A stretch of 64,000 nt of DNA from Antedon mediterranea. Lineage: Eukaryota > Animalia > Echinodermata. Under the pieces are notes generated by a model, which saw only the letters and a program-made list of their open reading frames with translations, had not been told where the DNA came from and made no database searches. The stretch is taken from contig NC_092677.1 in the NCBI RefSeq assembly GCF_964355755.1, positions 456,101 through 520,100 on the forward strand, written 5' to 3'. Position 1 is the stretch's first letter, and each line of letters starts with the position of its first letter. A program made the position numbers and the translations under genes. Positions 8,904 to 58,432 of the stretch are shown in pieces.

Positions 8904-11900
8904 CTACTTAGCTACATGAACTGCTGCAGGTACCTCATTTGCATAGGTTATTGGCGTCTTTCGAATGACCTGAACCATAAAATTGTACACAAATACAGTA
9001 TTACTGCAGGATACTGTTCATTGATGGCAAGAGGTGATTATGTTCTCATGTTTATGTTGATGAATTGTTACATCAAATTGTGACGTCATATAATTACATC
9101 ATTAACACTAGAGATATCATTAACATCATTAATACTAAATTAATGTTAAATTGTGTTTTACAAATGCACTGCTTTGCTTTTGTATGCTTTTTTGTTTGAC
9201 AATCTTGACTGTTCCAAAATATCTGGGCCAATCTACAAAAAAAGTGTTAAATAATGTTAATTATTTAAGAAAAAAGTTCGTTAAACTACGCTAAACTGTT
9301 TTCAATGGTCGTTTTATATGGAAATTTATAAAATAGAGAACCAATTAACATCTTAAATATGAACTGTTTGATTAACTATATTTAAGAAAATTATTCATAG
9401 AAAAAACCAATTTAGTGTAATGTTTTAGAACTCGTAAACTGAAGGGCCTCTCATCAGAAAATGATTCATAAATATCAATAGAAATACCATTCTTAGATTA
9501 AGTAACGTCCCACTTAACTAATCCCTCTATTGTCATTAATTGTTAACTACACAAAGTCATAGAAAGTAGTTTGCTTGTACCAGACGTAAAAAGTAGTTTG
9601 CTTACCCCAGACGTTGTGTCCGATGAATCGTCTTTTTCTTTTAGACCAACAAACTCAATTTCATTGTACGAAAATCCGGACTTCATGCTAATAACGAATT
9701 AATGAAAATATCTTAATATTAGAGTATAAAATTTGGATCAAATAATAATGATGCTGACGTCATAATGTATAGTAGGTTTATACGAAACTACGCGTGAAAA
9801 CTAAATCAAAAAAGGGCAAATTTACAGGAAACTGACAGAAGTACCAATCTTTCGAAAAACTCTTCATTTGACATTGAAACAAAGTGACATTATTCGGTAA
9901 AAGTTTAGTATTTATGGAATCTGAGATCTGACGATTCTGGTATACTTTACTGATATTTCTAAAGTAAAGGTTTAGTAGTGGCGTTTAACTAGGATTAAAT
10001 GAATTGATGATAATGTCAAATACCTGTATTATAACAAATAAATAAACTTACGTAGAATCATCGTATTTATCTGAAAAAGAAACAAGATAATCCATAATAA
10101 AATAAAGTCATCCATAATAATTACAGGATTGATACAACAAACACAATATATTAATTTAAAACACTATAATATCTACACAAAAGAATACATTTTGGTAAAA
10201 TTACCGTGACGAAGTCGAAAACCTTTTACGAATATTTCCTACGGTATTTTGCACGTACAAAGGGAATTAAGGTAATACACGTTCTTGACAGACAGTTTAA
10301 TTCATATATAAATTGATATGCATACTTACATCCTTTTGGCATTCGAGACCGCCTTTTACAAAATAAAAGACAGAAAATGATTAGAACGATAAGAAAGATG
10401 AAACCAGTCGTACACGCTGAGATAATGATGATGGTCATTGGCTCCAGTAGTGGTACTAAACAAAACATAAATGAATAATCACAATAAATATGTTTTCACA
10501 TGTTAAACTCATTTGTCTTCTTACTCTACCGACAATTACACAACAACAATACACACTGTACATACAATACATTTGAACGCGCGCGTCGAAGTTAGACTCC
10601 TTCATGGGATTTCAATCAGTTCTAATAATTAACTGCACTGTAATACTGCAATGGAAACTAAATAATAAAAGATTTGTTATGCCACTTTTCCAGCAAAGGT
10701 AAGACTATAATATAGAGTTATAATAACATTTATGTTTCGTACCAATTGTTACTACTATGCCGTTACCTTTTATGTGAATACGGAAACTCGCGGAACTTGG
10801 GAACGGAATTCCGCCTCGCACTCGACAAGTATATTTCATATTATCATCCATTAGGCTCGCATCAATTATCTCTATGTTCGCAGACGATGACAATTTAACT
10901 CCATTTTTGTACCACTCGTACGAATATGTATCTGCTGATTCGCACTCGTTTACACTGCAGACTAACGTCATTGATTTTCCTTCTTTTAGTGAAACCGATT
11001 CACCCTCAATAGTACGACCTGTCTTCATGTCACTCACGGTGGCATATCCACAGGAGTCTAGAGAAAGCAACAACAAAATATTTTACAAATTTAGCTAATC
11101 AACTGTACATATTAAACAAGATTTCTAGAAAAAAAAGTTACAAGTAGAGAAAAATAGTAATAATACAAGCATGGAAAAATTCCTCTATGTTAATATTGAT
11201 TTTGAATTCCCAACTTTATGTATTTGGCTAGATAATTAAGACGTATGATATTTCTAAGATCTAGAAAAGTGAGATATCTTAGGTCTTACTTTGATAGATC
11301 TTAATTTCTACACACTCTTTTTTTTCAAGTTTGCATTTTTTCAGGAACTTGTTTTGAACCTTTCAGTTTATATATGTGGTATTTTTTACCACATATTTTT
11401 ACGTCAGTAAGAATTCAGAGGAATGTGGAAAGTAGACATTAATTCGCAGTAAAGGCCGAATTGAATAAATATTGGCCTCCTCCTACCTCCAATGATTACA
11501 CTAGTCATTTTCTGCATGTGGCCGACTGGATTCGTAGCAGTCAGTGTCAGTTCGTACGACTTGCCAACTTCTTCCTCAGGAACGTAGAAGGTAAAGGAAG
11601 ACGTGGTCATTCCTTCCACTACATGTCCATCTTTTGTCCACATCAGGCTTGCTGGTGGGTTTGATTCCACCTCAAACGTAACGGTAACGTTCTGGTTGAT
11701 TACTGTCTTGGTGACACTTATGTCATTGATAACTGGTGAAACTGTAAGAAGAGTGTATAATATGGTAATACAGTTATTTTTTTATAAGTTTTATATTTCA
11801 TTTCCAAAAACACAAAAGGCCATCATACCAGCTTTATTAAATAATATGCCTACATAAGCTTACTATCAATTTTCTATTTTAGATACATTGCCCTTCCCTC

Positions 11901-11939
11901 CTCATCAAGAGAACAATTGAAACATTGATTGATTGATTG

Positions 11940-11973
<34 letters not shown>

Positions 11974-14900
11974 ATTAAAGAGTTAGCACACTGTTAAACT
12001 TGTTCCATGCCAGAATTAACAGGTTTTTACTGAATGTGCTAAATTTCAGATTATGTTAATTCAAATGTGTAAGTTCAAGATTCTGATTCCAACCCTTCAG
12101 TTAGTATTGTTGTATGTTTATTAGTTATTTTTTTATTATTACTTGTCAAAGTTTTTATTTTATTTAAAATACTTACAGTATACTTCTAGTCGTTTTGGAG
12201 GACTTGTTTCTTCCCTGACGTTGTTGCGCGCGCCACACACGTACATTCCGTCATCAGCACGTGATACGCTGTATATTATGAGTGTATGGTCACTTCGAAT
12301 CATGTGACTTCTAGAGGTTAAAGGAAGTTCTATGTTGTCTTTCTTCCAATAAACCGACGGCATGTTGTCACCAGTTGCCCTACAGGTCATCGTGGCGTTA
12401 CCTCCAACAACAATGCCATGCGATGGCACATTTGATACAGCTTCACTTAACCCTAAGTCAAAGAAGAAAAACAATTACTTTTTTCTGACTTAATACTTTG
12501 AGCCTTGTAGTACTACTAGTACGAAAGACACAGTGAACTAATATTCTTGATTTTGTTTGTGTTTATTAAATCTGTCTAGTCCACCATATTGTTTTCTTCA
12601 ACCTCCCCATGATTTGAATATAATATAACAAAACTTACAATAAACTTTAAGACTGATATCACCAAAGTCTTCATTTGGTGTATCCCCAATGATTTGAACC
12701 CGACACCTGTATTTTCCATTGTCTTCCTTTTGTACATTTTGTATCTGCAAGTCTGCTTCTCCTGACACGCTGTGACGTGGGTAGCCGTCCTCCCTATGAG
12801 TGGTTCCCTCGGTCCTGGTAAGAATTGGTTGTGGGTTGTCGTACTTATCTAGTAGACTCCAATGTACGATTGGTTCTGCGTTTACACTGGCAATTTTCTT
12901 GCTAAATGTACATCGTAGAACTACTGTACTCCCTTCCATTGATTCTGTACTTTGACCAACATTTACTGACGTACCAACAACCACTATAGAAAAAAAACAA
13001 TTGAATTATTGATTTTTTTTTTTTTAAATCATAAAACGTCTATTAACTCAAATAGTTTACGTTTTCTTTGCCCTTAATTTCCTCAGTGTAGTGCAAATAA
13101 GTCTCTGTATCTGTACGACTTTTAATATACCTGTGATCCTCGAATAGAATAGAATAAATGTAGGTAGGCCTAAGACTTAAGCCTACACATCACAAACAAA
13201 TCACGTAACTTACCCATGTATATAGGTATCGAACAAATACCTGAGTTCATTTGATTTTTTTTTTATTTTGGAATGTTTACCGTAGATATGACATGCACTT
13301 TTTTTGTCAAAGGTATCCATTGACAATATAGTCGGCTAGACGGTTTATAAAACCGAAGTTACAACCCATTTTGTTAAAGTTAAAATACTTAAAAATTATC
13401 TAAATTGAATAGGGCAGATGAACAACTAAATCCAGCTTTTTAAATATAATAATAGTTACGTTCTTGAACTGTTCACATCCTTTGTAACAATCGTGCTTGC
13501 GTTGATTTATGAATAACGCTAGCAGACTTTTAATCTGCTATTTTAGTAAGGAGGTCGTGTTAATGTCACTCTAAAGTTACACTCGACCTATTTTTATAAT
13601 GTTTTATTACAAAAAGAAAAATGGTTGTTATACAGTAGTAATAATTGTTTATACCTTGTCGACAGACATCCAGATAAAAGGCACCACAATACCCTTGCCA
13701 ATAGAAACATCTATCCGAATTTATTGTTAGACGTTTTAGCTAGTAATACTGTAGTTGTAAAGTTAATATACCTCTGTCTACACTACAATTTGATGTGCCC
13801 AAATATGGTAGTGGTATGCCCAAGTGTGGTGATATGACATAATTATGTCCATATATGGGCACTCACATTTTGTTGTGTAGACAGAGCTTTAGACGTTTTA
13901 GTTTGTAAAGTTGCTATAGTATTATATACCATTGTATTAAATAGACAGAAGTGAACGTGATTCTCGCTACTCTATATTACTCCATTCATTGGAATATTTG
14001 GTAATACAAACTGCAAAGTGTTTCTATGGAACGCCGTTTACGCAACATTTCAATGATATGAATTTTATGACGCGATATGTGAATGAAATGCATCGATATG
14101 AATTGAATGGCGCGATATATGAATGAAATGTTTTGAATTGAATGCTTTGAATTGAATGTTTTGAATGAACTGTTTTGAATGAAATGTTTTGAATAAATTG
14201 TTTTGATTGCAATGTTTTGAATGAAATGTTTTGAATGAAATGTTTTGAATTAAATGTTTTAAATGAAATGTTTTGAATGAAATGTTTGAATTGAATTGAA
14301 AAGTCAAACTATTGGTGGCGTATGTCATTCCCGCTCGCGATTTTTTTCTCAACCTCTTAGGCCTAAGCGTGGGTAGCCTCATCTCCACGCTGCCTTTACA
14401 GAGAATCCTAACAGACCTGAGTTCGGAAATATGTATTCCAATGTTTCAGGTCTGTTAGGATTCTCTGTAAAGGATCCATATTGATGACAGCGTGGAAAGG
14501 AGATGAGGGTACCCAGGCTTAGGCCTAAGAGGTTAAAACAAAATCGCGAGCAGGAATGACATACGCCGCCAATAGTTTGACTTTTCAATTCAATTCAAAC
14601 ATTTCATTCAAAACATTTCATTCAAAACATTTCATTCAAAACATTTCATTCAAAACATTTCATTCAAAACATTTCGTTCAAAACATTTCATTCAAAACAT
14701 TTTATTCAAAACATTCAATTCAAAACATTTCATTCAAAACATTTCATTCAAAACATTCAATTCAAAGCATTCAATTCAAAACATTTCATTCATATATCGC
14801 GCCATTCAATTCATATCGATGCATTTCATTCACATATCGCGTCATAAAATTCATATCATCAAAATTTTGCGTAAACGGCGTTCCATATGTTTCACCGAGA

Positions 14901-21951: not shown

Positions 21952-23386
21952 TTAAAATGACGTGTTGGTTTTATTAACACTGTTATCATATAATGGGTTT
22001 CTGATTTCGTTCATGTGAGATTCATCATCTCCCTCATCGTCGTCTTTGTGGAAGCCGTTATTTCCATACACATGTTGGTTTTTGTTGTCATCCGTACAGT
22101 CGTTTTCATCATCTTTTTGTTTTTCATCTTCATTATTCGTGGGTTTCCTTTCATTATTCTCGCGGTGGCTACTTTCATCAGTACTCAAATTGTGATCTTC
22201 TTTCTCTTCTTCGCACTCGTCATTGTGATAGTTATCATGTACATAAGGCCGATGTCCCTGTGTGTTTTGGTCTCCATTACAACCCTCGTACTCGTCTTCG
22301 TTGTAGCTATCGTGCATACCAGGCCGATGTCCCTGTGTGTTTTGGTCTCCATTACAACCCTCGCACTCGTCTTCGTGGTAGTTATCGTGCATACCAGGCC
22401 GATGTCCCTGTGTGTTTTGGTCTCCATTACAACCCTCGCACTCGTCCTCGTGGTAGCTATCGTGCATACCAGGCCGATGTCCCTGTGTGTTTTTGTCTTC
22501 ATTACAACCCTCGCACTCGTCTTCGTGGCGGTTATCGTATATCGTTGGCATCATTTTTTGGTTGCACTGAATGTTTTCATAAATGCTTTCCCGAAAGTGT
22601 GTAAAATCAATATAATCCTATAAAAAATACCCAAATAAATCAAATCAACATTGTTGAAAGATTCCTTCCTTGAACGTTCAGTCAATATAGGATTATGATT
22701 GTATTTAGTTTTAGGCCAAATAAAGTCATTTATATTTTTTCTCTGGGTGTAGGCCTATCGAAGTCTGAAAAGAGATCGCGTTAAAAAAACTAAAACGTTA
22801 CCTTGTCTTCGGATAATAAAGTGTCTAACTGCCCTGACAACTGGTCAAACGATGGCCTATCTTCTGGGTCAAGACTCCAACACCATATCATAAGTTCATA
22901 TCTAAACAAAAACATATTTTTCTGATACATTAATAACATTGCAAGGTATAATGTGTGGCGAAGTTTATTACGTGTTCTGTGGCGTTTAATAATCCATAAT
23001 CACATTGCAAGATATAATGTGTGGCGAAGTTTATTATACGTGTTCTGTGGCGTTTCATAATCCATAATCACATTGTCTAGATTAGTAATAAGTATATTAT
23101 TATTTGATTTCTTACATTGATTGTTCGCAATGATCAGGTTTAGGCATCCGATATCCTTCTTTTATCTTTACGATAAGATCACCTGTTGATATACCTGGAT
23201 ACGGGTGGCCTCCTGTAAACAAGTCATATCATTATTGTAACTATATAATTATCTGATCAACATAGGCCTGTAATCATCATCATTATCATCATCGCCATCA
23301 TTATCATCATCATCATCATCATAATCATCATCATCATCATCCTTGTCATCATTATCATCATCATCATTATCATCATTATCATCATT

Positions 23387-23424
<38 letters not shown>

Positions 23425-26400
23425 CATCCTTGTCATCATTATCATCATCATCATTATCATCATCATTATCATCTTCTTCTTCTCCTCCACTTCTCTCTTT
23501 ACCTAAAGTGATAATCTCCCACATTGTAACACCAAAGGACCATACGTCAGAACTCGTGGAGTATGCGTTGTCTAGGACAGCTTCAGGTGCCATCCAACGA
23601 ATGGGTAGTTGAGGCTACAAAAAAAAAATCAATCACATCAGGGAGATGTAAAATAAATTTAGTCATTGTACAAGTCCCTGCATAGTTCATGTTATGTTAT
23701 CAGTCAGAGGAAAATAGCAGAAGGCTTCCTACTTTCTAGGAGTGTTATCAGGTAATCTATATTGATCACAGTGCTGCTTTTGCCATTTTCCATCTAACTG
23801 TTATATAGATATGTATTTAGAACCCGATTTAGAATAGGTAGATAAATATGAGATCATAACACTATAAACGATCCTCTTCCTATTTGACCGTGAAATTTGC
23901 AAAGGTTGATAGGTATATAATTAATGTACCTGGTTGAGGTCCTCGTAAAGTCCACTTTGTTCCTTAGTATACGCCATTCCAAAGTCAGATAGTTTGCATC
24001 GTTTATCGTAAGTAAGCAGCACGTTCCTTGCTGCCAAATCACGATGGATACACTAGGAAATTAATTGATGTAATTAACTTTTTTTGAAATCGGTCACCTT
24101 ATAATTTAAATATAGACATATTTATTAAGTGTAATGATCTATGTAGTTAGACATTTATTAGTGAAATTCGAATGCGCCCTGACTAGTGACACTGTACATA
24201 TAAATATGTTTATCTACTTGGGATGCGATAACATTTCCAACAAATCAGAACTCAGGAATTTATTCTTGCGAATATATTTTTCTACAAAATAGGCTTCAAG
24301 CTATAAGAAGTTATACTATAAGCAAAACTGAGATTCGAAGAACATTTTTTTAAAGGGCTTTTACCTTTACCATTCCCTGGATCCCACATCTGTTTTATTC
24401 ATTATACGTAACATTTACCTGTATGGACGCCAGGTATGACATAGCCCTAGAAATCTGCCAAGCAAATGACGTCAAATCATCAGCGTTTGGCTGAGTGAGG
24501 GCGACAGGCGCGATATTGACAACTTCATAGGCGGCGTCATCATCATATTCTTGATGAACTTTTGGTACTGATAAAATATTTTTGGATTTGCGAGATTTGA
24601 ATAAGTAGTCTCGTAGATTTCCATAAGCTGCATATTCCAGAACAATGTATAGTGGATCTAAAAGAAAAATAGAGATTTGTTTCTAACTTGGGCGCAACGC
24701 AATCTAATTAAGATATCTTTAGTTAATGGAAATTTTATTTCAAATGTTGGGTTGAAAGTGCCTTACTTTTGCATTTGTCATATTGATAACTTTAACTTAA
24801 CAATTCTGCAATAATGTTTTTACGAAGCTAAAATATATTATTACCTTCCATTGTACAACAGCCAATTAGTTCTATAATGTTAGGATGTTTGCTAAATGTT
24901 TTCATCAAACTTAATTCATCTTGGAATCTGAACTTTTCTGAGTTATTGCAATTTTCTAAAAAGAGAATTGATAGAAATGAAATTATGTCAATATGCCAGA
25001 TTCCTTACCTTAGTTTTATTTAAAATAAACAACTGTTATATTGATAGGGTTAAAGGTACTAGTGGGGAAGTCTAATGTAATTCGGTGAGATTTTATTGTT
25101 CAAATCGAGTGGAGAAAATTTGGAATAGGCCTACTTGGAACTATTAGAATTCATTGCAATTAGACCCTATTTTGGCTGCCATCTTAGATTTCAAAATTGT
25201 GCTTATTTAAACTTATTAGTATAAACATGTGGACAAGTTTTATAATTGGTTATTTGTTTTTACTTTTGATGGTTTTGACAGCAACCGTAGTTTTACTCTT
25301 TTTACCCTTGCGGTAAAACTCAGCTCGTATCACCTTTCCAAAAAATCCTTCTCCTAAAACATCTTTTAACACCAATTTGTTTCGAGCTATTTCCCAGGAA
25401 TCCGTTTTTGCTGATCTGTTTCTCATGCTCATGATTGAAATAAGTGTCTAGTCGATATAAAATAAGAAAAAAATGTATAAAGTTTGCATCATAATAGGCT
25501 GAGGCGTATGTTGTTTAGGAGGGATAGAGTCGGGCTAGTATTGAGTGAGTGAGTGGCCGAGCGGTTAAGACAACCGTAATTACGTAGCCATAACATCGGC
25601 AAGGGTTCGAGGCTCACTCACTCCATGGTTCTGGTGGTAGAACGAGTCTTCTCGGATAAGGACTATAAACCGTAGGTCCAGTGTACACAACTAGCTCGTG
25701 TGCACTTTAAAGAACCTAGTACATCTTTCGAGACGAGTAGGGGGTTACCCCGGTGTATTAGTACATCACAGCCACTGATCACCAACTGGGTCCTCTGGGA
25801 GATCAGTCTTTGACTGAAGAGGTCACCCAGTATAAAAATGAACAAACAAACAAACATTGAAAAAGTACTTTATTGAAATCGCTGAAGTATTAGATGCTTT
25901 CATGTAATTGATGTCATCTGTATTGATCATTCTTTATAAACGTAGATTAAAAAAAATTGATCAGGCTACGTTTTTAGCTAATAATTATTTTGTAAATTAC
26001 AGTAATTTTTAAAAATAGAAATTATACCTACCTCCTGCCTTGGTGGTAAGGGTTTGTTACTGGAAGAAAATATATCAGTTATTTAAAATGTATTTGGACT
26101 GAGTTTGTAATAGAGTATAGTAAACTTAGTAATTCAGTTCGATCGAATAGATTGAAAATAGCATTACTATTCTAAATACAAAAATACATGTTATGTGACA
26201 ACAGAATGTGAAGTGCCCATGTATGGACATGTCACTATCATTATTTGGGAATATCACTACCATATTTGGGCACATCACACTTTGTGTCAAACTAGTTTAA
26301 TATATATTATCATTTCTTAACATAAAATATTGAAAACTACAAATGGAACAATAAACATATATAAAAATGTACCTTTTGGTTCGATGTCGGCGTTTATCTG

Positions 26401-42400: not shown

Positions 42401-43151
42401 TATATTTGATCTTCACTTGTAGGACTACAAGGGGGTGCTGTTGCCGGTATCACCGTTGGTGTATTGTTATTCTGTGTTGTTGTTGTTGTAGGAGTTGTTG
42501 TTATCGTAGTTTTAAAAGGTAAACAAATTACTAATTGATTATGATTTCGACAGCAATGTTTGTGGAATGAACTATACAAAATACATTAACATTAATTCTG
42601 TATCCAGTGCAACAATTACTTATCTTCATAAAATAATGTATATTTCCCATTATATTTAGGTTTTATTTATAGGCCTATTAATTAACTTTATTTCTTTTAA
42701 TATGTATACATTTACCGTTTTTACCAAATGACTTGACTTTCTTGTTGTAGGTATGTGTTTCCTGCCAACATCTAAAAGTGGAACATTCTCTGTTAAAGAT
42801 ACGTGAGTATTGATTGAAAGTATTTAATAAATACTTTTTGTTTATAAACAAAACTGTCCTTTGTATTGTAGTTTATGTATATGTGACGTCATTTATTTCA
42901 TATGAGTACAACATAAAAAAATACTCCATAAAACTAATATACTATAATAATAGTCCTACTACTGTATTATTAATATTATTTAGAATACGTTGATAGCAGG
43001 TTTGGTTGTTAACTTTGATCATGATTTGTTGCTCTTTTTTTACAGCGGAGAGAATAAGTGTGAGTGGCCAGGTGGTTCAAATGATAGCGAGCAAGACAAG
43101 GGTACTGTCGAAGATGAAAGCTATGAAAATACCTCCTCAAACTGGATCTAG
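39421..43151 (+). CDS. IgSF receptor 5: signal, V, I, short 4-Cys domain, TM, tail ending YENTSSNWI*; exons 39421-39472, 39829-40164, 40417-40683, 41219-41437, 41768-41794, 42423-42518, 42751-42802, 43046-43151
   Basis: DEGVYTC, DHAWYKC, DCVNITC..ELCP; TM GLQGGAVAGITVGVLLFCVVVVVGVVVIVVL; all junctions in phase. Confidence 0.87.
42010..42475 (+). repeat. 114-bp tandem repeat x4 spanning the intron end and 5' half of the TM exon
   Basis: Acceptor cacttgtag ends at 42080, 42194, 42308 and 42422, each followed by gactacaagggggtgctgttgccggt... Confidence 0.95.
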
Positions 43152-43159
43152 GGGAATCT

Positions 43160-43590: not shown

Positions 43591-44959
43591 TAGTTCACTG
43601 TTCTACGATTTTCTTGTCTTCCTTTGTTCTATTTTATTTTGCTCATTCCGCTCTGTTGTGGTGAGTATGCAGGAAAGCACTTGTTTGTAACATATTTTAT
43701 ATTAAATGTTGGATTTACGGAATATAGGGAAGTAGTTCATTTCATCATGTTTTCTATCTTATTAATTATAACTAAGCCACGTATACCTTTTCAAATGCAT
43801 TCGTTAAAATAAATAGTCTGACTTTAAATGAATTACGACTGAATACAAATGACGTCTGGATATAAAATGACGTCTCAGGCACATTTTTATTGGATTAATT
43901 ATAATTTAAATAAAAGTATTTCGCAATCTAACATTTTTGAGGAAAAAACTGATGACGGAGACTTGCATTAACTATACAGTAAATTACATTTTATAACGGT
44001 CACCTAGAGTACGTATACTGCAGAGAACCGCGTCTATTAATTATGTCGGGCGATGTTAGGATCAAGAAAACTATTTAGTAAAACATGGAGGTATATTTTT
44101 ATACCTCCATGAGTAAAATAACCAAAATATAAAAGAAAAATACCGTTGCAGAATATGGGAATCTGTGAATACCAATTACAATTCAAATTCATTTTGGTGT
44201 GGTGTTTTATTGAGTAGCCTATGCTAATCAACTATATAGGCGTTAATTGCTTAACTGTACATTACTAGAATCATTGAGCTGTATAGCTCCATGTGTTAGA
44301 ACGCTGCGTATAGTCTGAGACGCTGCGTATACGCTGAGACGCACAAACAAAACATTTGACCAATCACACATTACGACGGATCTTCCGAACTCTCGCTTGT
44401 GATTGGTTAAATTATTTGCGACGCCTCCCAGTCAGAACCGCCAAATTGGCAGAACATATTTGCAGTGCAGATACCTAATAATATTGTTATACTCACAATA
44501 TAACTATGCCCTGCATAATATTATAGCATGTAACACTGTAAATTACATACAACAAATCAGGGAAGAGTTAAATTACTCTTCTCTGACACAATAAATGCCT
44601 ATTTGAAAGTGATAATTAATAAAATAATTTATTTATGAGCAATTCTGCTGATTTTATCGATAGTTACTAATTAAATAAACATTTATATTTAAATAATGTA
44701 ATATATATGGAATTTCAAATGTTTAAATACGACACGATTTGGTTGTTTATTGTTTGTTTAGTTTGAGTTCGTGAACTAAAGTTAATGACTAACTATATCT
44801 TATCTTGATTGTAAACGGCCGGCCATTTAGTAACAGACCGTGGAGTTGGCGGGGAGAGTTTCATTCGTGGTCTCGCATCGTTTCTGTTTTACGTGACTAT
44901 TCATGAAATCTTAATTTTTAAAAAAAGTATTGTTAATATCGAAGTATTCCGTCAACGCC

Positions 44960-47900
44960 ATGGACATGTTATATTCCAGTTTGTTAATTATGCTTATAGG
45001 TAAGTACGACTAATATTATTTAATACATTGTAAGGCGTGGCTATACGTGTATTGCACGATACCATTAGTTTGTGTAGATATTAGGTTTGAATTACGTGTG
45101 AATAACCTGTTATTACTGAACTTTGGTCACAGACGCTTCTACATGTTAAACATTGGTCAGCCATTCAAATACACAGTATATTTCTATTACTGACTATGAT
45201 GTATACAGTCTATATGAATTTATAATGTTTGTAAGAAATAGATTAAACTAGAGAGTTAATTCATTACATGGCCTATTTGTCACTAGATATGTAGGCATTA
45301 AAAGTAATATTTAGTTCATATTCATTAAATATTATCAAACGTAACACTACCGGTAATATAATATGTATTTTCATTATGTTAGTTAATATAGTAGGTAATG
45401 ACGAAATAGCGCAATAAAGCACATTATTTCGGTAATCTTACTTTATTTGCATAGGCCCCCTAAAGACAAAGTTCTAATTGGATTGTGGTTCTGTCTCGGT
45501 CTTCGTTTCTAGAAACCTTTTCCTCCATCACAATACTAATACACAATACGTTTAATTATTGTGGTTTTGCTATTTGCCTAATTTCAGCTTGATTGCTTTC
45601 ATTTTTATACATAGGCTTCCTACACTTGGATAGATATACTATATTTTAATTTCTGTTAATAAGTACTACTGTTTTCTATAGGCCTGACATGCATCACATT
45701 TGAATTAAAGATTTTATCACTATATTTTGAATCATGTTTTTTTAACCATAGTCCCTATGGCTGTTGCACTAGAGGTCACAATAAGTGATGTGCAAGGATT
45801 TCCCGAGAATTCAGACGCGTTACTAGCTTGCGACTACGCACCAACTAGTGCAACGGGGGTTGATATCTCGTGGACACGAGTTAATGCTCAAAGCGAAATT
45901 ACTAATTTAGTAGTACGAAGTGAAGTGGTTGATGAATTCAAATCACGTATGGAGCTCCAGGTTGCTGATACTTTCCAGGGTAACGCTGGTTTAATAATTC
46001 GTAATGTCACTAAAGAGGATGCTATGTCTTACGTGTGTGCAGTATTCTCTACTAGTGATGGTCAAGAACAAGGAATAACTACTCTACAGATACAATGTAA
46101 GTATTGATCTTTTTGTTTTTCTCTTTCTATCATGCTTGCTACTTAATGGTATCTCTAAAACAGGACATGCTCCCGATTGAAAAAAAAAATCAATTCCTTG
46201 ATCATAACTTTCATAAATTTAAAAGGTCATATTTGACCTATACACTCAGCAAGACGTGCCCGCATATAAAAAAGAAATAACTATTATTTAAATACTTATG
46301 CGATCTACAGATATAATTTACATTGTGTATGGCCTACATAATATCCAAGTCCAAACGAAAAGAAAGAAAGAAACGAAACGTGTAGGACTAATAGACCTTA
46401 GATGAATGCGGATATTTTTCTGAACCCACAGTGTTAGTCTACGTTTTATTGGGGAAGGATTTTGTAGGTACTTAGTACTATAATACAATATTGAATAAAT
46501 GTGAAATGTTAAGAATTCTACTGTTTTTTGTTTTTATTTTAGGGAATTACAAGCCAAAAATTACAAGTGATCCAGCTCCAGATTCTTTGCAAGTTGGTGA
46601 CAACGTAACATTTACGTGTTTATCTGAAGCCAACCCTACATCAGAAATAGCATGGCTAAAGAACAACGTTACCATTGAGATGGATGACAGATTCACAAAG
46701 AACGAGAATGCATCTACTCTTCACATAGATGGTTTAACTCGAGATGATCACGCACTCTTTAGTTGTAGTTCAACAAACCCCGTAAAAGAAATAAGGAGTG
46801 ATCAGATTGAAGTTGATATAGAATGTAAGTAGTATGCCTAATATTGGTAATAGAACACTTGTTTACTTTAATTATAATGATTAAGAAGACATTTAGATCA
46901 TAGGCTGGCCTAAAGTATACATTGTGCTGACCCGCACGGTATAGGCTAATCTACAAAAATATCCAAATGGCTGTAGACTAGTTTTTAAAAAGGCGATTCG
47001 ACTAAATATTGGTAAAAAGATAAATATTTTGGCACAGATGGTATTCCATACGTATATTACTTGCGCTATATAGATAAAACAAATTGTGAATTGGAAACTA
47101 TGAAACGCCGAGTGCCTTCATTGGAAAATAGAAGTTCAGAATTGTTGTTATGATTTATAATAGGTCTAAGTATAATTGTTTTTAATAGATGAGCCAGAGA
47201 TGTATTTAAACCAGACAGGCAACAAAGTTGAATGCACCAGTGAAGCGAATCCAGCAGTGTATCAGTACGAGTTTGAAGTAGACGGTAAAGTAGTGAGGAC
47301 AGACGACGCAGTGTACGAATTGAAAGGAACTGAATGTGTTAATATCACGTGTTTTGGTACTAACAAAATAGGAACAGGCAACGCATCGGATATCGCGTGT
47401 CCTTTGAGTAAGTATTCTGTTACTCATCCAGAAAAGCAAGAAATTTCTACTTACTGACTTTTATAGTTAAATCACCTTTTGACGTCGCTTTAAATTATGA
47501 AACAAAAACAGTACGCTTCTTTCACATATTTTAACATTATTCTATTTGCTTTATTTAACATGAATTTACAATGTGTCTATCTTGGTATAATTCTATACAA
47601 TACTATTGCTTTTTAGTTCATCAATGTTTTTTTTCATTTCAGTTATTCCATCCACACCGCAGCCTAGTACAGGTAAGAATCAACTAAACTGTCATTGGTG
47701 TGTTTAAACGCGTATCTGTACGCGCGCGTATGTTTTAAAATCTGAAATTTAAAACACCCTCTTGTTATATTACGTCTTTATATATTATAATATTACGTCA
47801 TTATAATTTATGATTCATATCTGCATCTATAGGTTTGTCTGGTGGCGCTGTCGCCGGCATTGTTATTGGTGTTCTAGCGTTAGTTGGCGCTGTTGTCGTT

Positions 47901-49434
47901 CTTGTCCTCATCCTCCTCGTATTCCGTAAGTACACAATTCTCTTCCACTAAGTTACTTTTCTAGTGGCCAATCACCCAAAATAAGTCGTTTTAGTATGGT
48001 TTAACTAATTATATACTTATCGAATTCTTATTTTTGTTTTGGAGCAATGAAATTAAAACAGTCGCGCTACTGCAAAATCATCAGCGTATAATTACAGGGT
48101 GGTTATCTGTGGCAAAGAAAACTTTTTTAGTATTTAGTAACCTAACAGACAACCTAAACAAATGAGTAATTCTCGTATTTTTATACGTCGTTATCAGGTA
48201 AAAGTGGAGTGTATGGAGAATCCAAAGATTCAAAATGGTGAGTGTCTAAATTACTATTATCATCATTATTATCATTCCGGTATATATAATATTCAGAATA
48301 TTATAGGTAAATTCTCCCAGTATCTCCAAGTGTACGTATAGGCCTACTATGAAGAACAATACAGAACTATGGTTTGGGGTTAGGGTCAGGATATCAATCC
48401 CAATAAGAGAATGCTTCCAATACTATACTTAAGCCTAAATCGTGGTTTCCACAAGAGACGCACGCAAGCGAGTTGATCAATCACAAGCGACAGTTCGAAT
48501 AATATATCTATCGCTTGTGATTGGTCAAATCATTTACGTTGCGAACCAATCATTATTATTATTGTCACAATTAAACATAAAAAATAAAATCTAATGTAAA
48601 AACAGTTTTTAAAAACAGATTGAAACAAGTTATAAACTTGCAGTGGCCAAGCACATAACATGTTTTGTTTATGTTGTTACAGGAACTATGCAGAAGAAGA
48701 TGAAAAGATGGAGACTAAAAAGAAGGAAGAAAGCAAGCCAGCAACAGGTTCAGGAGGCACAGATACAGGTAGGGACAACTACTTATTGGTTGCTAGGCAC
48801 AGATACAGGTAGGGACAACTACTTATTGGTTGCTAGGCACAGATACAGGTAGGGACAACTACTTATTGGTTGCTAGGCACAGATACAGGTAGGGACAACT
48901 ACTTATTGGTTGCTAGGCACAGATACAGGTAGGGACAACTACTTATTGATTGCTAGGCACAGATACAGGTATGGACAACTACTTATTGGTTGCTAGGCAC
49001 AGATACAGGTAGGGACAACTACTTATTGATTGCTAGTCGATCAATCGACTTGATACATTGATCTATTCATCCGATCAATAATCTTGGTTCCCACTTGGAC
49101 GCAACGCAACGACGTAGGCACAACGCAAGTGAGTTGACCAATCACAAGAAGTTTCAATGATCCACCGCATCGTGATTAGTCAAATTACTTATGGGGCGCG
49201 CCCATGCGTCGTGTGAACAGAGATTTAAGATTAAACCAATACCTTGCGACCGAAATTACCCTGTTAGACCTAAAACTGCAGAACTACAAAGTACTAAAGA
49301 CATGTTTTTTTTTTTTAATGTTAGGTACGGCGTCAGAAAAAAAGGGCAGCAGCGAAGAAGAGAAGGGGAAGGATCACAGGTATGATGAACCACCGACAGA
49401 GGCAAAGGAAGCGAACGAAAAGGATTGGGTGTGA
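44960..49434 (+). CDS. IgSF receptor 6: signal, V, I, short 4-Cys domain, TM, charged tail ending EKDWV*; exons 44960-44999, 45752-46096, 46543-46824, 47189-47407, 47643-47672, 47833-47925, 48198-48237, 48683-48768, 49325-49434
   Basis: DAMSYVC, DHALFSC, ECVNITC..IACP; TM GLSGGAVAGIVIGVLALVGAVVVLVLILLVF-RKSGVY; all junctions in phase. Confidence 0.88.
48755..49036 (+). repeat. 40-bp tandem repeat x7 containing the exon/intron donor junction
   Basis: aggcacagatacag|gtagggacaactacttattggttgct, with donors after 48768, 48808, 48848, 48888, 48928, 48968 and 49008. Confidence 0.95.
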
Positions 49435-49525: not shown

Positions 49526-49867
49526 AACTTTGCATAATTTACGCAAAAGAAGAGACAAACCAAATTCAATTAAATACTATAAAAGATAATAAAGTTAGAT
49601 TAATAACTATAATTGTTAGTTTTCCTTTTTAGTTTTGTTAATATTATTAAGTAGTATTTTAGGCCTAGATTTTTACAAATTTTAATGACACATAATTTGT
49701 ACCTGATTTGTATAGATTTAGCATTTGTACATCAATGATAAATTTAATTGTTTTTTAAATCTTGTTAAAAATAAATCGTCTTTATACAAATATTGTGCGT
49801 ATACCTTTTGACAATTGTTCTATAGGACCTACAGGCACATAGGCCGATAAAAAAAACGATTGTAACT

Positions 49868-51282: not shown

Positions 51283-54200
51283 CTATACGTCTATAAGATG
51301 ATTTAACGCAATATATGCACATATATAGCATATATAACATTTTAAAAAGTGCCTATTTTGGAAATATTTATTTTTTGACGTAAATGGTTACTATAGCATA
51401 ATAAACATGCGCAGAGTCGAATAATGCGTTCTGCGCATGTTAATTGTGCTATAGTAACCAGTTTTATCGAAAAACAAAAAGGTCGAAAATTGGCCATTTT
51501 TTTGAAAAAATCCCTTTACTTTAAGTACAGGGAAATTTTCGAAAAATTGCCGATTTTCGACCCTTTTATTTTTTTGTCATCAATGGTTACGATAGTATAA
51601 TAAACATGTGCAGAGTCCGAATAATGGGTTCTGTGCATGTCAATTGTCCTATAGTAATCACTTTTGACATAAATGGTTACTATAGCATAATAAACATGCG
51701 CAGAGTGGAATAATGGGTTCTGCGCATGTCAATTGTGCTATAGTAACCAGTTTTATCGAAAAATTAAAATGTCGAAAATTGGCCATTTTTTTTTTAAAAA
51801 TTCCTGTACTATAGTACAGGGAAATTTTCGAAGAATAGCAAATTTTCGACCCTTTTGTTTTTTGACATAAATGGTTACTATAGCATAATAAACATGCAGA
51901 GAGTCCAAAAATAGGTTCTGCGTATGTCAATTGTGCTATAGTAACCACTTTTGACATAAATGGTTACTATAGCATAATAAACATGCGCAGAGTGGAATAA
52001 TGGGTTCTGCGTATGTCAATTGTGCTATAGTAACCAGTTTTATCGAAAAATAAAAATGTCGGAAATTGGCCATTTTTTTGACAAAATCCATGTACTATAG
52101 TACAGGGAAATTTTAGAAAAATAGCAAATTTTCGACCCTTTTGTTTTTTGACATAAATGGTTACTATAGCATAATAAACATGCACAGAGTCGAAAAATGG
52201 GTTCTGCGCATGTCAATTGTGCTATAGTAACCACTTTTGACATACATGGTTACTATAGCATAATAAACATGCGCAGAGTGGAATAATGGGTTCTGCGCAT
52301 TTCAATTGTGCTATAGTAACCAGTTTTATCGAAAAATAAAATTGTCGAAAATTGGCCATTTTTTGAAAAATCTCTTTACTATAGTACAGGGAAATTTTAG
52401 AAAAATAGCAAATTTTCGACCCTTTTGTTTTTTGACATAAATGGTTACTATAGCATAATAAACATGCACAGAGTCGAAAAATGGGTTCTGCGCATGTCAA
52501 TTGTGCTATAGTAACCACTTTTGACATACATGGTTACTATAACATAATAAACATGCGCAGAGTGGAATAATGGGTTCTGCGCATGTCAATTGTGCTATAG
52601 TAACCAGTTTTATCGAAAAATTAAAATGTCGAAAATTGGCCATTTTTTTTGAAAAATCCCTGTACTATAGTACAGGGAAATTTTCGAAAAATAGCAAATT
52701 TTCGACCCTTTGTTTTTTGACATAAATGGTTACTATAGCATAATAAACATGCACAGAGTCGAAAAATGGGTTCTGCGCATGTCAATTGTGCTACAGAAAC
52801 CACTTTTGACATAAATGGTTACTATAGCATAATAAACATGCGCAGAGTGGAATAATGGGTTCTGCGCATGTCAATTGTGCTATAGTAACCAGTTTTATCG
52901 AAAAATTAAAATGTCGAAAATTGGCCATTTTTTTGAAAAATCTCTTTACTATAGTACAGGGAAATTTTAGAAAAATAGCAAATTTTCGACCCTTTTATTT
53001 TTTGACATAAATGGTTACTATAGCATAATAAACATGCACAGAGTCCAAAAACAGGTTCTGCGTATGTCAATTGTGCTATAGTAACCAGTTTTATCGAAAA
53101 ATTAAAATGTCGAAAATTGGCCATTTTTTTTGAAAAATCCCTGTACTATAGTACAGGAAAATTTTCGAAAAATATCCGATTTTCGACCCTTTTATTTTTT
53201 GACATAAACGGTTACTATATAGCATAATAAACATGCAGAGAGTCCAAAAATAGGTTCTGCGTATGTCAATTGTGCTATAGTAACCACTTTTGACATAATT
53301 GGTTACTATAGCATAATAAACATGCGCAGAGTGGAATAATGGGTTCTGCGCATTTCAATTGTGCTATAGTAACCACTTTTGACAGAAATGGTTACTATAG
53401 CATAATAAACATGCACAGAGTGGAATAATGGGTTCTGCGCATTTCAATTGTGCTATAGTAACCACTTTTGACATAAATGGTTACTATAGCATAATAAACA
53501 TGCGCAGAGTGGAATAATGGGTTCTGCGCATTTCAATTGTGCTATAGTAACCAGTTTTATCGAAAAATAAAATTGTCGAAAATTGGCCATTTTTTGAAAA
53601 ATCCCTGTACTATAGTACAGGGAAATTTTCGAAAAATAGCAAATTTTCGACCCTTTTGTTTTTTGACATAAATGGTTACTATAGCATAATAAACATGCAC
53701 AGAGTCGAAAAATGGGTTCTGCGCATGTCAATTGTGCTACAGTAACCACTTTTGACATAAATGGTTACTATAGCATAATAAACATGCGCAGAGTGGAATA
53801 ATGGGTTCTGCGCATGTCAATTGTGCTATAGTAACCAGTTTTATCGAAAAATAAAAATGTCGAAAATTGGCCATTTTTTGAAAAATCCCTTTACTATAGT
53901 ACAGGGAAATTTTCGAAAAATAGCAAATTTTCGACCCTTTTATTTTTTGACATAAATGGTTACTATAGCATAATAAACATGCACAGAGTCCAAAAATAGG
54001 TTCTGCGCATGTCAATTGTGCTATAGTAACCACTTTTGACATAAATGGTTACTATAGCATAATAAACATGCACAGAGTGGAATAATGGGTTATGCGCATG
54101 TCAATTGTGCTATAGTAACCAGTTTTATCGAAAAATTAAAATGTCGGAAATTGGCCATTTTTTTTGAAAAAATCCATGTACTATAGTACAGGGAAATTTT

Positions 54201-55200
54201 CGTAAAATATCCGATTTTCGACCCTTTTATTTTTTGACATAAATGGTTACTATAGCATAATAAACATGCAGAGAGTCCAAAAATAGGTTCTGCGTATGTC
54301 AATTGTGCTATAGTAACCACTTTTGACATATTAATGGTTACTATAGCATAATAAACATGCGCAGAGTGGAATAATGGGTTCTGCGCATGTCAATTGTGCT
54401 ATAGTAACCAGTTTTATCGAAAAATAAAATTGCCAAAAATTGGCCATTTTTTTGAAAAATACCTGTTCTATAGTACAGGGAAATTTTCGAAAAATAGCAA
54501 ATTTTCGACCCTTTTGTTTTTTGACATAAATGGTTACTATAGTATAATAAACATGCACAGAGTCGAAAATGGGTTCTGCGCATGTCAATTGTGCTATAGT
54601 AACCACTTTTGACATAAATGGTTACTATAGCATAATAAACATGCGCAGAGTGGAATAATGGGTTCTGCGCATGTCAATTGTACTATAGTAACCAGTTTTA
54701 TCGAGAAATAAAAATGTCGGAAATTGGCCATTTTTTTAAAAATCCCTTTACTATAGTACAGGGAAATTTTCGAAAAATAGCAAATTTTCGACCCTTTTGT
54801 TTTTTGACATAAATGGTTACTATAGCATAATAAACATGCACAGAGTCGAAAAATGGGTTCTGCGCATGTCAATTGTGCTATAGTAACCACTTTTGACATA
54901 AATGGTTACTATAGCATAATAAACATGCGCAGAGTGGAATAATGGGTTCTGCGCATGTCAATTGTGCTATAGTAACCACTTTTGGCATGGTTACTATAGC
55001 ATAATAAACATGCGCAGAGTCGAATAATGGGTTCTGCGCATGTCAATTGTGCTATGGTAGAAAATTGGCCATTTTTTTGAAAAAATCAAAATCAATACGT
55101 CTATAAGATGCTTATAACGCAATATATGCACATATATAGCAATATTATTGCATAATAACCGTCTTTTAAAAAGTGCGTAATTTGGCCATTTTTCGAAAAA
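51283..55200. repeat. Higher-order satellite (~285-bp unit: two ~89-bp hairpin monomers plus one ~107-bp palindromic spacer), bracketed by a direct repeat
   Basis: Monomer tggttactatagca..acatgcgcaga..tctgcgcatgt..tgctatagtaacca; spacer centred on ccctgtactatagtacaggg; flank atacgtctataagatg...aacgcaatatatgcacatatatagca at about 51285 and 55095. Confidence 0.93.
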
Positions 55201-55638
55201 ATCCCTCATGTTTAGTGATCCTAATTGTTAATAAGAGTCAATGTACTTCATTCATTTAATGTAATAATCTTGACCTTTGACCGATCGATGAGTATAATAT
55301 TTCTCTACTTTCTTATTATAACAAAGCTCAAGGGATAATGGAACTGGCCACGTATTGTTACTCTTCATGCATGCAGGCCTTTTCAAAGATAACCAATTAC
55401 AGCAAACCCACTTACCTATACAAAAAATAGGACTACTTTATAAATTTAAAATGCTAGGTTTATACAATTAACAATACTGATGGTTAGAAAAACTCTAAAA
55501 TTTTATAAAATATAAGTAAAATGATTCCATTGTTCCCATTTACCAGTAATTTATAACTAAATCATGGGTTTTGTTATGTTTATTTGTATTGTAATATCAT
55601 GTTTTTAATTGACGAAATGAAATGAAATAATTGATATC

Positions 55639-58432
55639 TCACCAGTCTAAGTCTTTCCGTTGTGTTGGTCGCATATACTTGAAAGCGTTTCCTAAGTAAC
55701 AGAAAACACTCTATTATTTATTTTTATATACATTGGAAAAATTGTATTTCAAAAGTAAATTTATCTCATCGAAATTTAAATTATTTTCAGTACTATAAAA
55801 TATTACAGACAATACAAATTGATCAGAAACAAACTACGTTTATTTTTCGTTTTAATGACGCTTCGCGTGATTACACAGATATTGAATTATTCTGCAGGGC
55901 TCTCCAAAAGACACAAACCGAATGTCTATATTAGTAACGAGCTAATCATTGGATAACAAGAGACCTCCCACGGACTATGCAGTGTACAACCGTCGCATTA
56001 AAGGTTTCAGCAGCGGCAGCAGCGAAAGTCGTAAACTTGCATAGGTCGTCTTAAGCCAATGTAAGCCGTCAAACGATGAACTTTCGGTTTTTACAAGTAA
56101 TGAAGCGTGAAAAGTCAAATTGTTACAAGAAAAAACAAATTTAGAATGGTAAAAAATGTATTGCAATTTTAATAATTACTAATAACAAATAGAAGTTAAA
56201 CAAAAAAGCAAATGACGCTGCGTGGTTGTGCGTGGCAATTGCGCGTACACAATGGGCTTATACAGATTCACAAAACTATTACATACCGTAAGCTCCTTGA
56301 CACACATCCTGCACAATCAAGGTTTATAACAAAAATTACTTACGTTTCTTCAAAATTATAAACCCAGCTATAAGTAAAGAAATTGCAATAACTGAAACTA
56401 CGATTCCAACAACCGCTCCACCACTCAAACCTACAAAGTAAATGAAGTTGAATCATTAATTTTTGTTGTTGTAAAAATTGGCACTTGGTTTACATCTTCA
56501 GGGACGTCATCGTGAAAATTCAATACAATGTTTGTCAAAACTATATTCACATGGTAAAGTATACAGCAAACACAAATACTATGCTGCACACCATACATGA
56601 GTTAGTGGTTTCTACAAACCCACGACATCCTCCTATTGTATTCATATTTAGGGGTAGCATTGGTAAGAACTCTTAGATACTTGTGTGTTTGTGTTTTTTT
56701 AAAAGCCATGGTTCCTACTTGGACGCCACGCAACAACGTAGGTACAACGCAAGTGAGTTAATCAAACGAAAGAATAATCCACCGTGACGTGATTGGTCAA
56801 TTATTACGTCTTTGCGCTGTGTCCAAGCCAAGAGTGACCCAAGTTTAAGTATGCATCTTAATCTCCACCACTGTTATATTCTTACCTTGTTTATGCTCTG
56901 TATCTGTCTTTTGTGCTAAAAATAACAAAATGACAAATAAAATGATTACTATAAGAAAAAGACGATGACAAATGACAAATACAATTATTACTATAAATAG
57001 AAATATATGATTCAATAATATAATTGACTTGAATGAACAGTATGAATTCCATAGTCCTATTGTATATGTGCGTATTACATACCTGACCCACAGACCAGTT
57101 GTGACGTAATCATAGATGAAACTTCGTTTGACGCTTCGCATGTCACGTGCTCGCATGAATCAATGTCCATTTTAACATATGATAACTCCACTTCTTCGTA
57201 CTTCGAACTGTTTGTGTATACAATTATTGTAGCGATTGGAAAAGCGTCTACCTGGCAGAGTAGCGTATTTCCAGTAACTGATAGATTTATAACAGGTGCG
57301 TCTATAATAAAAAGCATAACTTTTAACTTATAAGTCAAATATCTTAAAGCATTAAACATTGATTTTTAAAGGAAACAATGAAGGAAAGAAGAGTAAACAT
57401 AGAATCTAACATTCAAATGATTGCTGAGATCATCTACTATCCACAATAGATGTTTTCAGGAATGAAACTAATCGCCAGACCCGTAGATTACCATAATAAG
57501 TCGCAAGAAAAAGACAGAAATGTACATACGCTTTACTTGCAACAAGAGAGTTTCACTTAGCAACACGCTTGCGTTGTTTCCAGATCTACATCGAATTTCA
57601 CTTCCATGATCTTCTCTAGTTAATGTGTCAATCTTTAGAATAGTATCCTCCATTTTGTAATTACCGCCATCAATTGTCCTGTTATTAACTGACCACGTGA
57701 CAATAGAAATAGGTTGTGAATCTGTTACGCACGTAAGGATGACGCTATTTCCTGTTTGAAGTATTCCAGAAGGCTGCTGAGTAATGTTTGGTACACTATT
57801 CCCTTAAATAAAACAAATATTCTATAATGCACTTTTTGCGTGTCATACAGGCGCTCCATAGTTGTACTAAACATTTACATTTACAATACTTGTTTAAAAA
57901 ATATCTATTTTCTGTGAAGAATTATATTTTCTATTACAGTACTTACATATTATATTTAACCGTGTCGAAGCTTTTGATCCTCGTTTCGTCTTAATGACGA
58001 CTACTTCGCAAACATAAATTCCAGCATCAGATTCTGTGACATTAGCAATGCCTAAACTAGCATCTCCAAACGAATTTGCTGCCAAGAAATAGCCTTCAAT
58101 TTTAGATTCATTCCTCACAATTATGTTAGTTATATCTTGTTTAGATTTTACATAACTCCATGAAATGTCGATGTCGCCATTCACAGTTTCCGGATCATAA
58201 TGGCATTTTAAAATCGTTGGTTTTCCTTTTGTTGCGAGTTGATTTGAAGGTATCTCTACGGTTACATTACTGCAGAACACCAATACTGAAAAAATATAAA
58301 CAATTATTGTCTATAGATAAAAAAGAAAAACCGGACTTAGACGGCAGAAAATACATAGGTTACAGACTTACCATTGCACGAAGTAAAGATTATAACAATC
58401 AAACTTAATATACTTCTACAAACACCTTCCAT
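55639..58432 (-). CDS. IgSF receptor 7: signal, V, I, short 4-Cys domain, TM, short tail ending KDLDW*; exons 58432-58372, 58285-57947, 57802-57530, 57301-57083, 56915-56886, 56430-56344, 55691-55639
   Basis: MEGVCRSILSLIVIIFTSCN signal; DAGIYVC; WNSVPNITQQP..LTC..EIRC; SCEHVTC..LVC; TM GLSGGAVVGIVVSVIAISLLIAGFIIL-KKR; tail NAFKYMRPTQRKDLDW*. The terminal exon is less certain. Confidence 0.83.

Follow-up and report, generated by a model that had tools for sequence, protein, structure and literature searches.

The seven immunoglobulin (Ig)-type genes clustered at 8904-58432 of the window, i.e., the 64,000-nt stretch of Antedon mediterranea DNA analysed here (GCF_964355755.1, NC_092677.1, positions 456,101-520,100, forward strand), probably represent an old V-I-compact-C2 family conserved in feather stars, whose members are likely nectin/SynCAM-like receptors for cell-cell recognition or adhesion, with a fixed tail for each gene and a recent offshoot of one gene, G6 (rough probability 0.55). 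Six genes are kinase-less (G1, G3-G7), and one (RTK) encodes an intact FGFR-like kinase.

8904-13250, minus strand: G1, signal peptide, V, I, Cys-less C2, C2, transmembrane segment (TM), tail
21952-29069, minus strand: RTK, signal peptide, V, I, Cys-less C2, TM, tyrosine kinase
31880-35816, plus strand: G3, V-I-mini-stalk-TM
36604-38609, plus strand: G4, signal peptide, 33-nt microexon where V is expected, I, mini, stalk, TM, ITIM tail
39421-43151, plus strand: G5, V-I-mini-stalk-TM
44960-49434, plus strand: G6, V-I-mini-stalk-TM
55412-58432, minus strand: G7, V-I-mini-stalk-TM

When the window sequence was spliced, all seven genes gave open reading frames with AG/GT splice sites, and RefSeq models of A. 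mediterranea are identical in every letter to four of the proteins over the shared exons. Each Ig domain occupies one exon of phase 1-1 throughout the cluster, the first cytoplasmic exon is of phase 1-to-2 in six of the seven genes, including RTK, and five genes possess a stalk microexon (27, 15, 27, 30, and 30 nt). Identity among the paralogues is low (V 21-38%, I 16-33%, mini 15-32%); V and I domains retain the canonical Cys and Trp. The sequence-only reading had described this tandem cluster, its single-domain exons, stalk microexons and highly diverged ectodomains, and all of these were confirmed; the architecture that it called conserved needs a correction for G4, which has no V exon. No additional Ig exon was found in the 64-kb window by HMM scan. 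The automatic names carried by these genes are mutually unrelated (PSG2-like, KIRREL3-like, CEACAM1-like, and NCAM-like).

Five of the genes (G3-G7) share a membrane-proximal, compact, Trp-less C2-type Ig domain of 72 residues, termed mini here, to which Pfam is blind. Pfam Ig families match 15 of the 21 domain exons, and those without an Ig match are the five mini exons and the third domain of RTK.

47189-47407, plus strand: mini exon of G6, the family marker
34642-34857, plus strand: mini exon of G3
37355-37579, plus strand: mini exon of G4
41219-41437, plus strand: mini exon of G5
57083-57301, minus strand: mini exon of G7

The structure model of mini (pLDDT 94.6) has seven strands and finds its best folds in CD22 (Z 9.9) and amphioxus IgVJ-C2 (Z 9.3); the domain carries the Ig disulfide and matches C2 domains best. 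A similar compact membrane-proximal domain is present in unnamed V-C2-mini receptors of other echinoderms (Holothuria, Apostichopus, Patiria), which differ from the crinoid genes in their C2/C1-like second domain and in their tails (degenerate-kinase, death-domain-like, or short). No function of these receptors was found in our literature search.

One-to-one orthologues in Anneissia japonica were identified for all six genes compared (G3-G7 and RTK; none for G1 was among the proteins retrieved), apparently on one scaffold of 1,030,499 bp, with three accessions consecutive. Because of these six counterparts, the cluster genes are likely to encode stable receptors for recognition or adhesion and not immune receptors of fast turnover. 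The sequence-only reading had named one-to-one orthology to unrelated known families as the opposing outcome; the orthology is indeed one-to-one, but all the genes belong to one related crinoid family. Identity by exon between the two crinoids is 43-62% for V, 52-62% for I, and 44-75% for mini, with V being no clear outlier. Trees of the mini and I domains pair Antedon with Anneissia for G3, G4, G5, and G7, while G6 joins its own copies; support is weak for the G6 pairing and the deeper nodes, deep nodes are unresolved, and the branches of G1 and RTK are long. No date for the Antedon-Anneissia divergence was found in the accessible part of PMC13079724.

Some tail stretches are kept better than their surroundings, including the final 14 residues of the 17-aa G7 tail (14/14 identical in Anneissia), the SNWI end of G5 (identical in the orthologue; P0007 and P0008 XP_033096728), RYxxL in G3, whose Antedon tail holds RYDDL, and the ITIM in G4. 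The earlier view of a family cluster with distinct tails is supported, with tail motifs conserved in Anneissia. G6 has a juxtamembrane KSGxY, conserved in Anneissia, and a tail ending in KDWV, whose DWV is missing from the Anneissia model; its membrane span matches in 25 of 31 positions. We take the tail motifs of G5, G6, and G7 to resemble motifs bound by PDZ domains and by band 4.1. No Pfam match to the syndecan/4.1 family was obtained in the nine proteins scanned, and a PDB search for such a tail likewise gave none. Trp occurs among the last two residues of three of six tails (shuffle P = 0.001, a feature picked after the fact), in line with the Trp-containing C-termini noted earlier, except that in G7 the W is internal and lies at an exon junction, and its homologue in G6 is the junction W, not the C-terminal one.

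38553-38570, plus strand: consensus ITIM of G4, VSYKAV (VTYKPV in the orthologue)
42010-42475, plus strand: tandem repeat of the G5 TM exon, four 114-nt copies of the acceptor and half of the membrane span, the last being the sole complete one

The G4 orthologue (P0098 XP_033096729) retains the V domain; in Antedon, tblastn with this V found no V exon at the locus, and a weak donor follows the I exon. The ITIM of G4, claimed from the sequence alone, is present and preserved as V[ST]YKxV though the rest of the orthologue tail diverges, while an ITIM in one of six tails is by itself within chance (shuffle P = 0.20). This conserved motif would fit an immune inhibitory receptor equally well. As for the possible ITAM-like pair proposed for the window tails, none of the six contains a strict ITAM. 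A further exon that would complete an ITAM in G3 was rejected: the second half, Yxx[L/I], is missing and the RefSeq tail stops earlier. Models of G3 without the I exon exist in both crinoids (P0004; P0024/P0026), and soluble isoforms of G7 are modelled in Anneissia. A RefSeq first exon of G7 near 60.7 kb has no hydrophobic signal and was discarded; 58432-58372 was retained instead.

Two Antedon copies of G6 lie outside the window (P0003 and P0005), with ectodomain exons 84-96% identical to G6 and a different TM and tail. P0005 shares 46/49 V, 87/94 I, and 70/73 mini residues with G6 and 8/28 in the TM; P0003 shares 79/94 I and 68/72 mini residues; both are partial automated models in which the signal peptide is absent. 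The P0003 tail bears a loose ITAM-like pair, YDDL-x8-YHSV, a type of pair that arises in 7.6% of shuffles. Raw contigs contain copy-type variants (R97H, K101R, K235T, E241D, D261A, and one inserted Ile) and, in three runs of one sample, the mini-to-I joint in the order of P0003. Excess read depth, which does not equal copy number, is limited to the three ectodomain exons of G6. Across contigs of two samples, differences in G6 exons are few, and those listed are paralogue variants or silent; this survey covered G6 alone, with alleles inseparable from paralogues. In run X1, RNA by guess, introns are covered and none of the listed splice joints is present.

These copies give the best support to the idea of paired receptors, which was not supported inside the window: the ectodomains of the window genes are 15-38% identical, no tail has a strict ITAM, none of the 15 spans examined has a charged TM residue, and six of six testable genes are one-to-one with Anneissia. 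According to the accessible part of PMC5701461, near-identical ectodomains on another TM and tail, as in G6 and its copies, are the pattern of Siglec-11/16. CEACAM1/3 offer a further likeness. It is possible, though doubtful, that the locus belongs to an innate immune paired-receptor system, in which G4 (ITIM) and G6 recognise self and are targeted by pathogens, the tyrosine-pair copies of G6 are the activating counterparts, and similarity is kept by duplication or gene conversion. The tyrosine pair of P0003 and the pseudokinase or death-domain-like tails of the sea cucumber relatives are consistent with such a system, which is opposed by the absence of an ITIM from G6 itself, the placing of the ITIM on the unrelated paralogue G4, the partial state of the copy models, and the divergence and stability of the window genes. 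Somewhat more tentative still is the proposal that echinoderms own a paired Ig-receptor system, in which a V-x-compact-C2 ectodomain is swapped among tails of ITIM, tyrosine-pair, scaffold, kinase, pseudokinase, and death-domain type, the Antedon G6 ectodomain is passing to activating-type tails one exon at a time, by copying or gene conversion, like Siglec-11/16 and CEACAM1/3 in mammals, and the clustered RTK acts as the priming kinase. No report of paired Ig receptors in echinoderms was found in our literature search, and sea-urchin V-type IgSF genes may be already described. Hibino 2006 and Lapraz 2006 reportedly may cover such genes as well as orphan RTKs.

The RTK protein has 905 aa with an acidic repeat tail and an intact kinase (which includes a 15-residue stretch, letters not given here) that is closest to FGFR1 among the kinases compared; its orthologue (P0001 XP_033096730) is 62-90% identical by kinase exon. 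FGFR1-like traits are the juxtamembrane W and the C-terminal Y-I/L-D motif. RTK differs from FGFR in its V-type first domain, in a single activation-loop Tyr (DFGMAY), and in the hinge "molecular brake" column, which is Glu in Antedon and Asp in Anneissia, not the Asn that defines the FPVR group (PMC8662651). G1, which has no mini domain and whose tail of 61 aa contains four Tyr (YNEI, YAN), shares with RTK the V-I-[Cys-less C2] order and the juxtamembrane exon phases 1-to-2 and 2-to-0, and its third domain finds its top match in that of RTK (18 bits). The V of G3 scores 37 bits to the V of RTK, and the two genes are divergently transcribed 2.8 kb apart. Three Ig domains and kinase-less neighbours recall FGFR and FGFRL1, and FGFRL1 frequently adjoins FGFR according to the available part of PMC2754479. 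A growth-factor module, with RTK signalling and the kinase-less neighbours, G1 foremost, acting as FGFRL1-like decoys or co-receptors for its ligand, is nevertheless unlikely: the V of RTK is 21-33% identical to those of its neighbours, which is low for a common ligand, and no FGFR structure was matched by the V domains of RTK or G1 in the structure search. FGFRL1, as described in that part of PMC2754479, is a single gene whose six exons include a box exon that separates Ig1 from Ig2 and a single exon for TM plus tail, a plan found in none of the window genes; on this ground the FGFRL1-like decoy array suggested earlier fails.

Feather stars are solitary animals, which counts against an allorecognition complex of the Hydractinia Alr type, whose V domains would be homophilic and hyperpolymorphic, as do the stable orthology and the few G6 exon differences in two samples, paralogous or silent. 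The clustered single-pass V/I-set genes, tails more varied than ectodomains, and an ITIM do resemble Alr as presented in the accessible part of PMC9546547; however, the crinoid V and I domains have canonical Ig cores, unlike many Alr domains, and the genes have no Fn3-like region and no ITAM, making this reading highly improbable. When two copies of the V-I part of G6 were folded together, the score was 0.00, no verdict either way. In a feature-based Atlas comparison, G6 matches best a cluster with the automatic name 'histocompatibility ligand transmembrane form' (score 0.96, tied with HEPACAM2), a lead only, though one in the direction of Alr.

Among the readings raised from the sequence alone, the nectin/SynCAM-like one fits best. 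Like nectins and Necls (CADM, SynCAM, PVR), most cluster genes have a three-Ig, single-pass V-C-C plan, from which G4 (no V) and G1 (four domains) depart. The G6 model has three Ig domains, and its best Foldseek rows are nectin-1, CEACAM6, nectin-3, IgLONs, and DIPs (13-24% identity; 15-20% in the nectin rows). The nectin family combines PDZ/4.1 tails with one ITIM offshoot, according to the available part of PMC7286890, and the cluster has putative scaffold motifs in most tails, an ITIM in one, and a recent tail-changed offshoot. It differs in its I-set second domain, its 72-aa Trp-less third domain, and its tandem array with an RTK; the conserved SNWI and KSGxY motifs match no Pfam family. 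Against adhesion, the nectin fold likeness is generic to three-Ig proteins, with CEACAMs, CD22, and IgLONs scoring alike, and ectodomains of 43-62% identity, the V loss of G4, and the G6 copies point to quicker change than might be expected of a core adhesion family. In the profile search, CEACAMs rank top, and vertebrate nectins are absent from the top 60 sequence matches.

If the cluster encodes recognition or adhesion receptors, the N-terminal V domains would bind partners on opposing cells, and the tails of G5, G6, and G7 would dock scaffold proteins through PDZ- and band 4.1-like motifs. V[ST]YKxV of G4 would recruit an SH2 phosphatase or an endocytic adaptor, G3 would signal via YxxL, and soluble isoforms would serve as decoys. 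RTK, the kinase-bearing relative next door, could phosphorylate the tail tyrosines of its neighbours. Once Antedon and Anneissia had split, the G6 ectodomain would have been copied at least twice onto another stalk, membrane span, and tail, a young offshoot that may be analogous to the origin of PVR from nectin-2.

Automatic naming obscures that these genes belong to a single syntenic family, whose mark is a compact Ig domain undetected by Pfam. The family offers a small, tractable set in which a gene with a conserved ITIM stands beside a relative that bears a kinase and a recent ectodomain copy with a swapped tail, and it bears on how, in invertebrate deuterostomes, V-domain adhesion molecules become immune receptors. 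Should the G6 copies be truly activating partners, paired Ig receptors would reach echinoderms.

Gene models were built from a six-frame reading of the window and inspection of splice sites, and all seven Ig-superfamily genes (the receptor tyrosine kinase gene RTK and the kinase-less G1 and G3-G7) splice into open frames, which bears out the sequence-only reading of seven Ig receptor genes with one kinase. The exon plan it proposed also stood: every Ig exon is phase 1-1, and the stalk exon of 15-30 nt was confirmed in five genes. The first cytoplasmic exon runs from phase 1 to 2 in six of the seven genes, RTK among them, an indication that the membrane region has a shared origin. Pfam recognised Ig families in 15 of the 21 domain exons scanned, with no Ig match for five short membrane-proximal exons and the third domain of RTK. 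Two sub-types are present, G1 and RTK (V, I, and Cys-less C2 domains) and G3-G7 (V, I, and a compact membrane-proximal "mini" domain), with the V exon absent from G4; paralogues are 15-38% identical. Other elements of the window are as follows.

244-1902 (+): 553-aa open frame, non-LTR retrotransposon reverse transcriptase (RVT_1, E 4e-34)
2232-~6830 (+): gene of several exons beside the cluster, encoding repeated NDK-like domains
21955-22617 (-): RTK tail, a 75-nt (25-aa) repeat present 4.4 times in frame
37228 (+): weak donor, GTAGTG, after the G4 I exon
44796-45187: alternative haplotype upstream of G6, differing over 393 nt by 11 substitutions and 5 gap letters
51373-55059: ~3.7 kb satellite between G6 and G7, 284- and 89-nt units
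62671-63516 (+): beginning of an eighth gene, its product secreted or membrane-bound, with a signal-peptide exon plus a Thr/Pro-rich mucin-like exon, continuing past the window

The NDK-like gene, which we take to resemble NDK-domain ciliary dynein assembly factors, can serve as a synteny marker; the start of the eighth gene had no Pfam match. Intron retention at the weak G4 donor would give a secreted single-Ig product, and non-coding heterozygosity upstream of G6 is high.

With a profile built from the five mini exons, seven proteins were recovered among 2717 candidates, including the Antedon mediterranea RefSeq models of G6 (P0002), G3 (P0004), G7 (P0006), and G5 (P0007), and the window is accordingly of feather-star origin. 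The exon plan agrees with this independent annotation, our G6 and G7 models matching it at 100% in every exon past the first. The automatic RefSeq names differ from gene to gene, and thus the family is unrecognised in that annotation.

Searching with the kinase-insert exon of RTK gave one protein among 15 candidates, Anneissia japonica XP_033096730, and further searches obtained orthologues of G3-G7. The six orthologues each sit on a contig of 1,030,499 bp, an identical figure from which we infer the same scaffold, and those of G5, G4, and RTK have consecutive accessions.

Identity between Antedon and Anneissia orthologues, by exon
G3: V 65/105; I 58/93; mini 54/72
G4: I 48/92; mini 38/73
G5: V 64/112; I 52/89; mini 49/73
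G6: V 61/115; I 57/94; mini 41/73
G7: V 47/110; I 47/91; mini 32/73
RTK: kinase exons 62-90%

In domain trees the two species pair gene by gene wherever there is support, which is weak at deeper nodes; no G1 orthologue was among the proteins retrieved by these searches for the other six genes. The V domain is present in Anneissia G4 and has been lost from Antedon G4. Isoforms without the I exon are modelled for G3 in both species, and isoforms without the membrane span for G7 in Anneissia. Stable one-to-one orthology, fixed tails, and divergent paralogues fit a recognition or adhesion family better than a paired-receptor locus with birth-and-death turnover. We infer the functional steps of every reading, and give this one a probability of about 0.55. 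No description of the cluster was met in the portions of the literature searched (including PMC11999971, PMC13079724, and PMC7916673), two key sea-urchin genome papers lying outside that scope.

The kinase of RTK retains intact catalytic motifs, as had been claimed, and has FGFR1 as its nearest solved structure, the top row itself being a two-kinase EGFR construct. At the hinge, where an Asn defines the FPVR group (PMC8662651), Antedon and Anneissia RTK have Glu/Asp, and the V domain matched no FGFR chain in the structure search; RTK is best described as an FGFR-like orphan RTK. Its tail repeat is rich in His/Asp/Cys, has one Tyr per copy, and is absent from the Anneissia orthologue. The kinase-less genes do not match the FGFRL1 exon plan given in PMC2754479. 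An RTK-decoy module, akin to the FGFRL1-like decoy array suggested before, is improbable, and weaker than recognition or adhesion.

Under the ITIM/ITAM consensus of PMC9546547, the six tails examined hold no strict ITAM. The claimed ITIM was found in one of six tails, a count unremarkable by shuffling (P=0.20), but the G4 motif VSYKAV is kept as VTYKPV in Anneissia within a tail exon otherwise 6/17 identical; shuffling of the two G4 tails, from Antedon and Anneissia, produces the consensus at rates of 3.4% and 1.4%. Several tail motifs are rescued by orthology in this way: RYxxL of G3, the final 14 residues of G7 (identical), and KSGxY of G6, whose membrane span is 25/31 identical. Of the proposed Trp-containing C-termini, SNWI of G5 is conserved, whereas the Anneissia G6 model ends differently. 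KSGxY presumably resembles band 4.1-binding motifs and the xWI/xWV ends PDZ ligands, likenesses that a Pfam scan of nine proteins did not confirm. None of 15 membrane spans examined carries a charged residue.

The G6 model has three Ig domains and a helix (mean pLDDT 79.5); its likeness to the best Foldseek rows (nectin-1, CEACAM6, nectin-3, NCAM2, IgLONs, and DIPs, 13-24% identity) is generic. Modelled alone, the Trp-less mini domain, with a second Cys pair in G3, G5, G6, and G7, is confident (pLDDT 94.6, seven strands) and resembles C2-type domains, CD22 (Z 9.9, rmsd 1.8, 72 aligned) being tied with amphioxus IgVJ-C2 (Z 9.3), CD58 (Z 9.2), and CD48 (Z 9.1).

Two further Antedon models, P0003 and P0005, share the G6 ectodomain and are not encoded in the window; their contig is of 28,587,047 bp, the same figure as for the models of the window genes.

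Identity of the copies to G6
P0005: half V 46/49; I 87/94; mini 70/73
P0003: I 79/94; mini 68/72

Beyond the ectodomain the stalk is 4/10 and the membrane span 8/28 identical, the tails are unrelated, and the span common to Anneissia is that of G6 itself. Since the G6 ectodomain is only 53-61% identical between Antedon and Anneissia, the copying postdates their split. When contigs of four runs (two samples) were aligned to G6, ten of the 40 differences listed (of 119) were exonic, five silent and five matching substitutions of P0003/P0005. All four runs contained the additional Ile codon seen in P0003, and three runs, all from one sample, contained a joint leading from mini back to I, the exon order of P0003. 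Summed contig depth, which is no copy number, rose over the three ectodomain exons and not over introns or the TM exon. The copies are therefore real DNA with introns unlike those of G6, their protein forms as modelled being predicted; both models lack a signal peptide, and the P0003 tail carries YDDL-x8-YHSV, a pair that does not amount to a strict ITAM and that 7.6% of shuffles also yield. Near-identical ectodomains on different tails follow the Siglec-11/16 pattern (PMC5701461) and, more loosely, that of PVR derived from nectin-2 (PMC7286890). These copies and the conserved ITIM speak for an immune reading of the cluster, which we nonetheless hold doubtful; allorecognition, also weaker than recognition or adhesion, is very improbable.

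In the wider family, a mini-type profile search reached 224 proteins at E<=0.001, and the majority of the 150 listed are long multi-Ig repeat proteins; 21 were examined whole and 10 named. P0119 is a further Anneissia member on a different scaffold, and P0158 and P0051, from Patiria, carry the mini domain, which in one of them accompanies a tyrosine kinase. Sea-cucumber P0099 and P0110 have V-C2-mini-TM followed by a degenerate kinase, P0123 a weak death-domain match in its tail (20.7 bits, under the cut-off), and other such proteins short tails. Across echinoderms, one ectodomain type is thus combined with tails of several kinds, and the sea-cucumber V-C2-mini-TM families (P0099, P0110, P0101, and P0123), whose tails are degenerate kinases or death-domain-like, are a candidate echinoderm immune receptor expansion.
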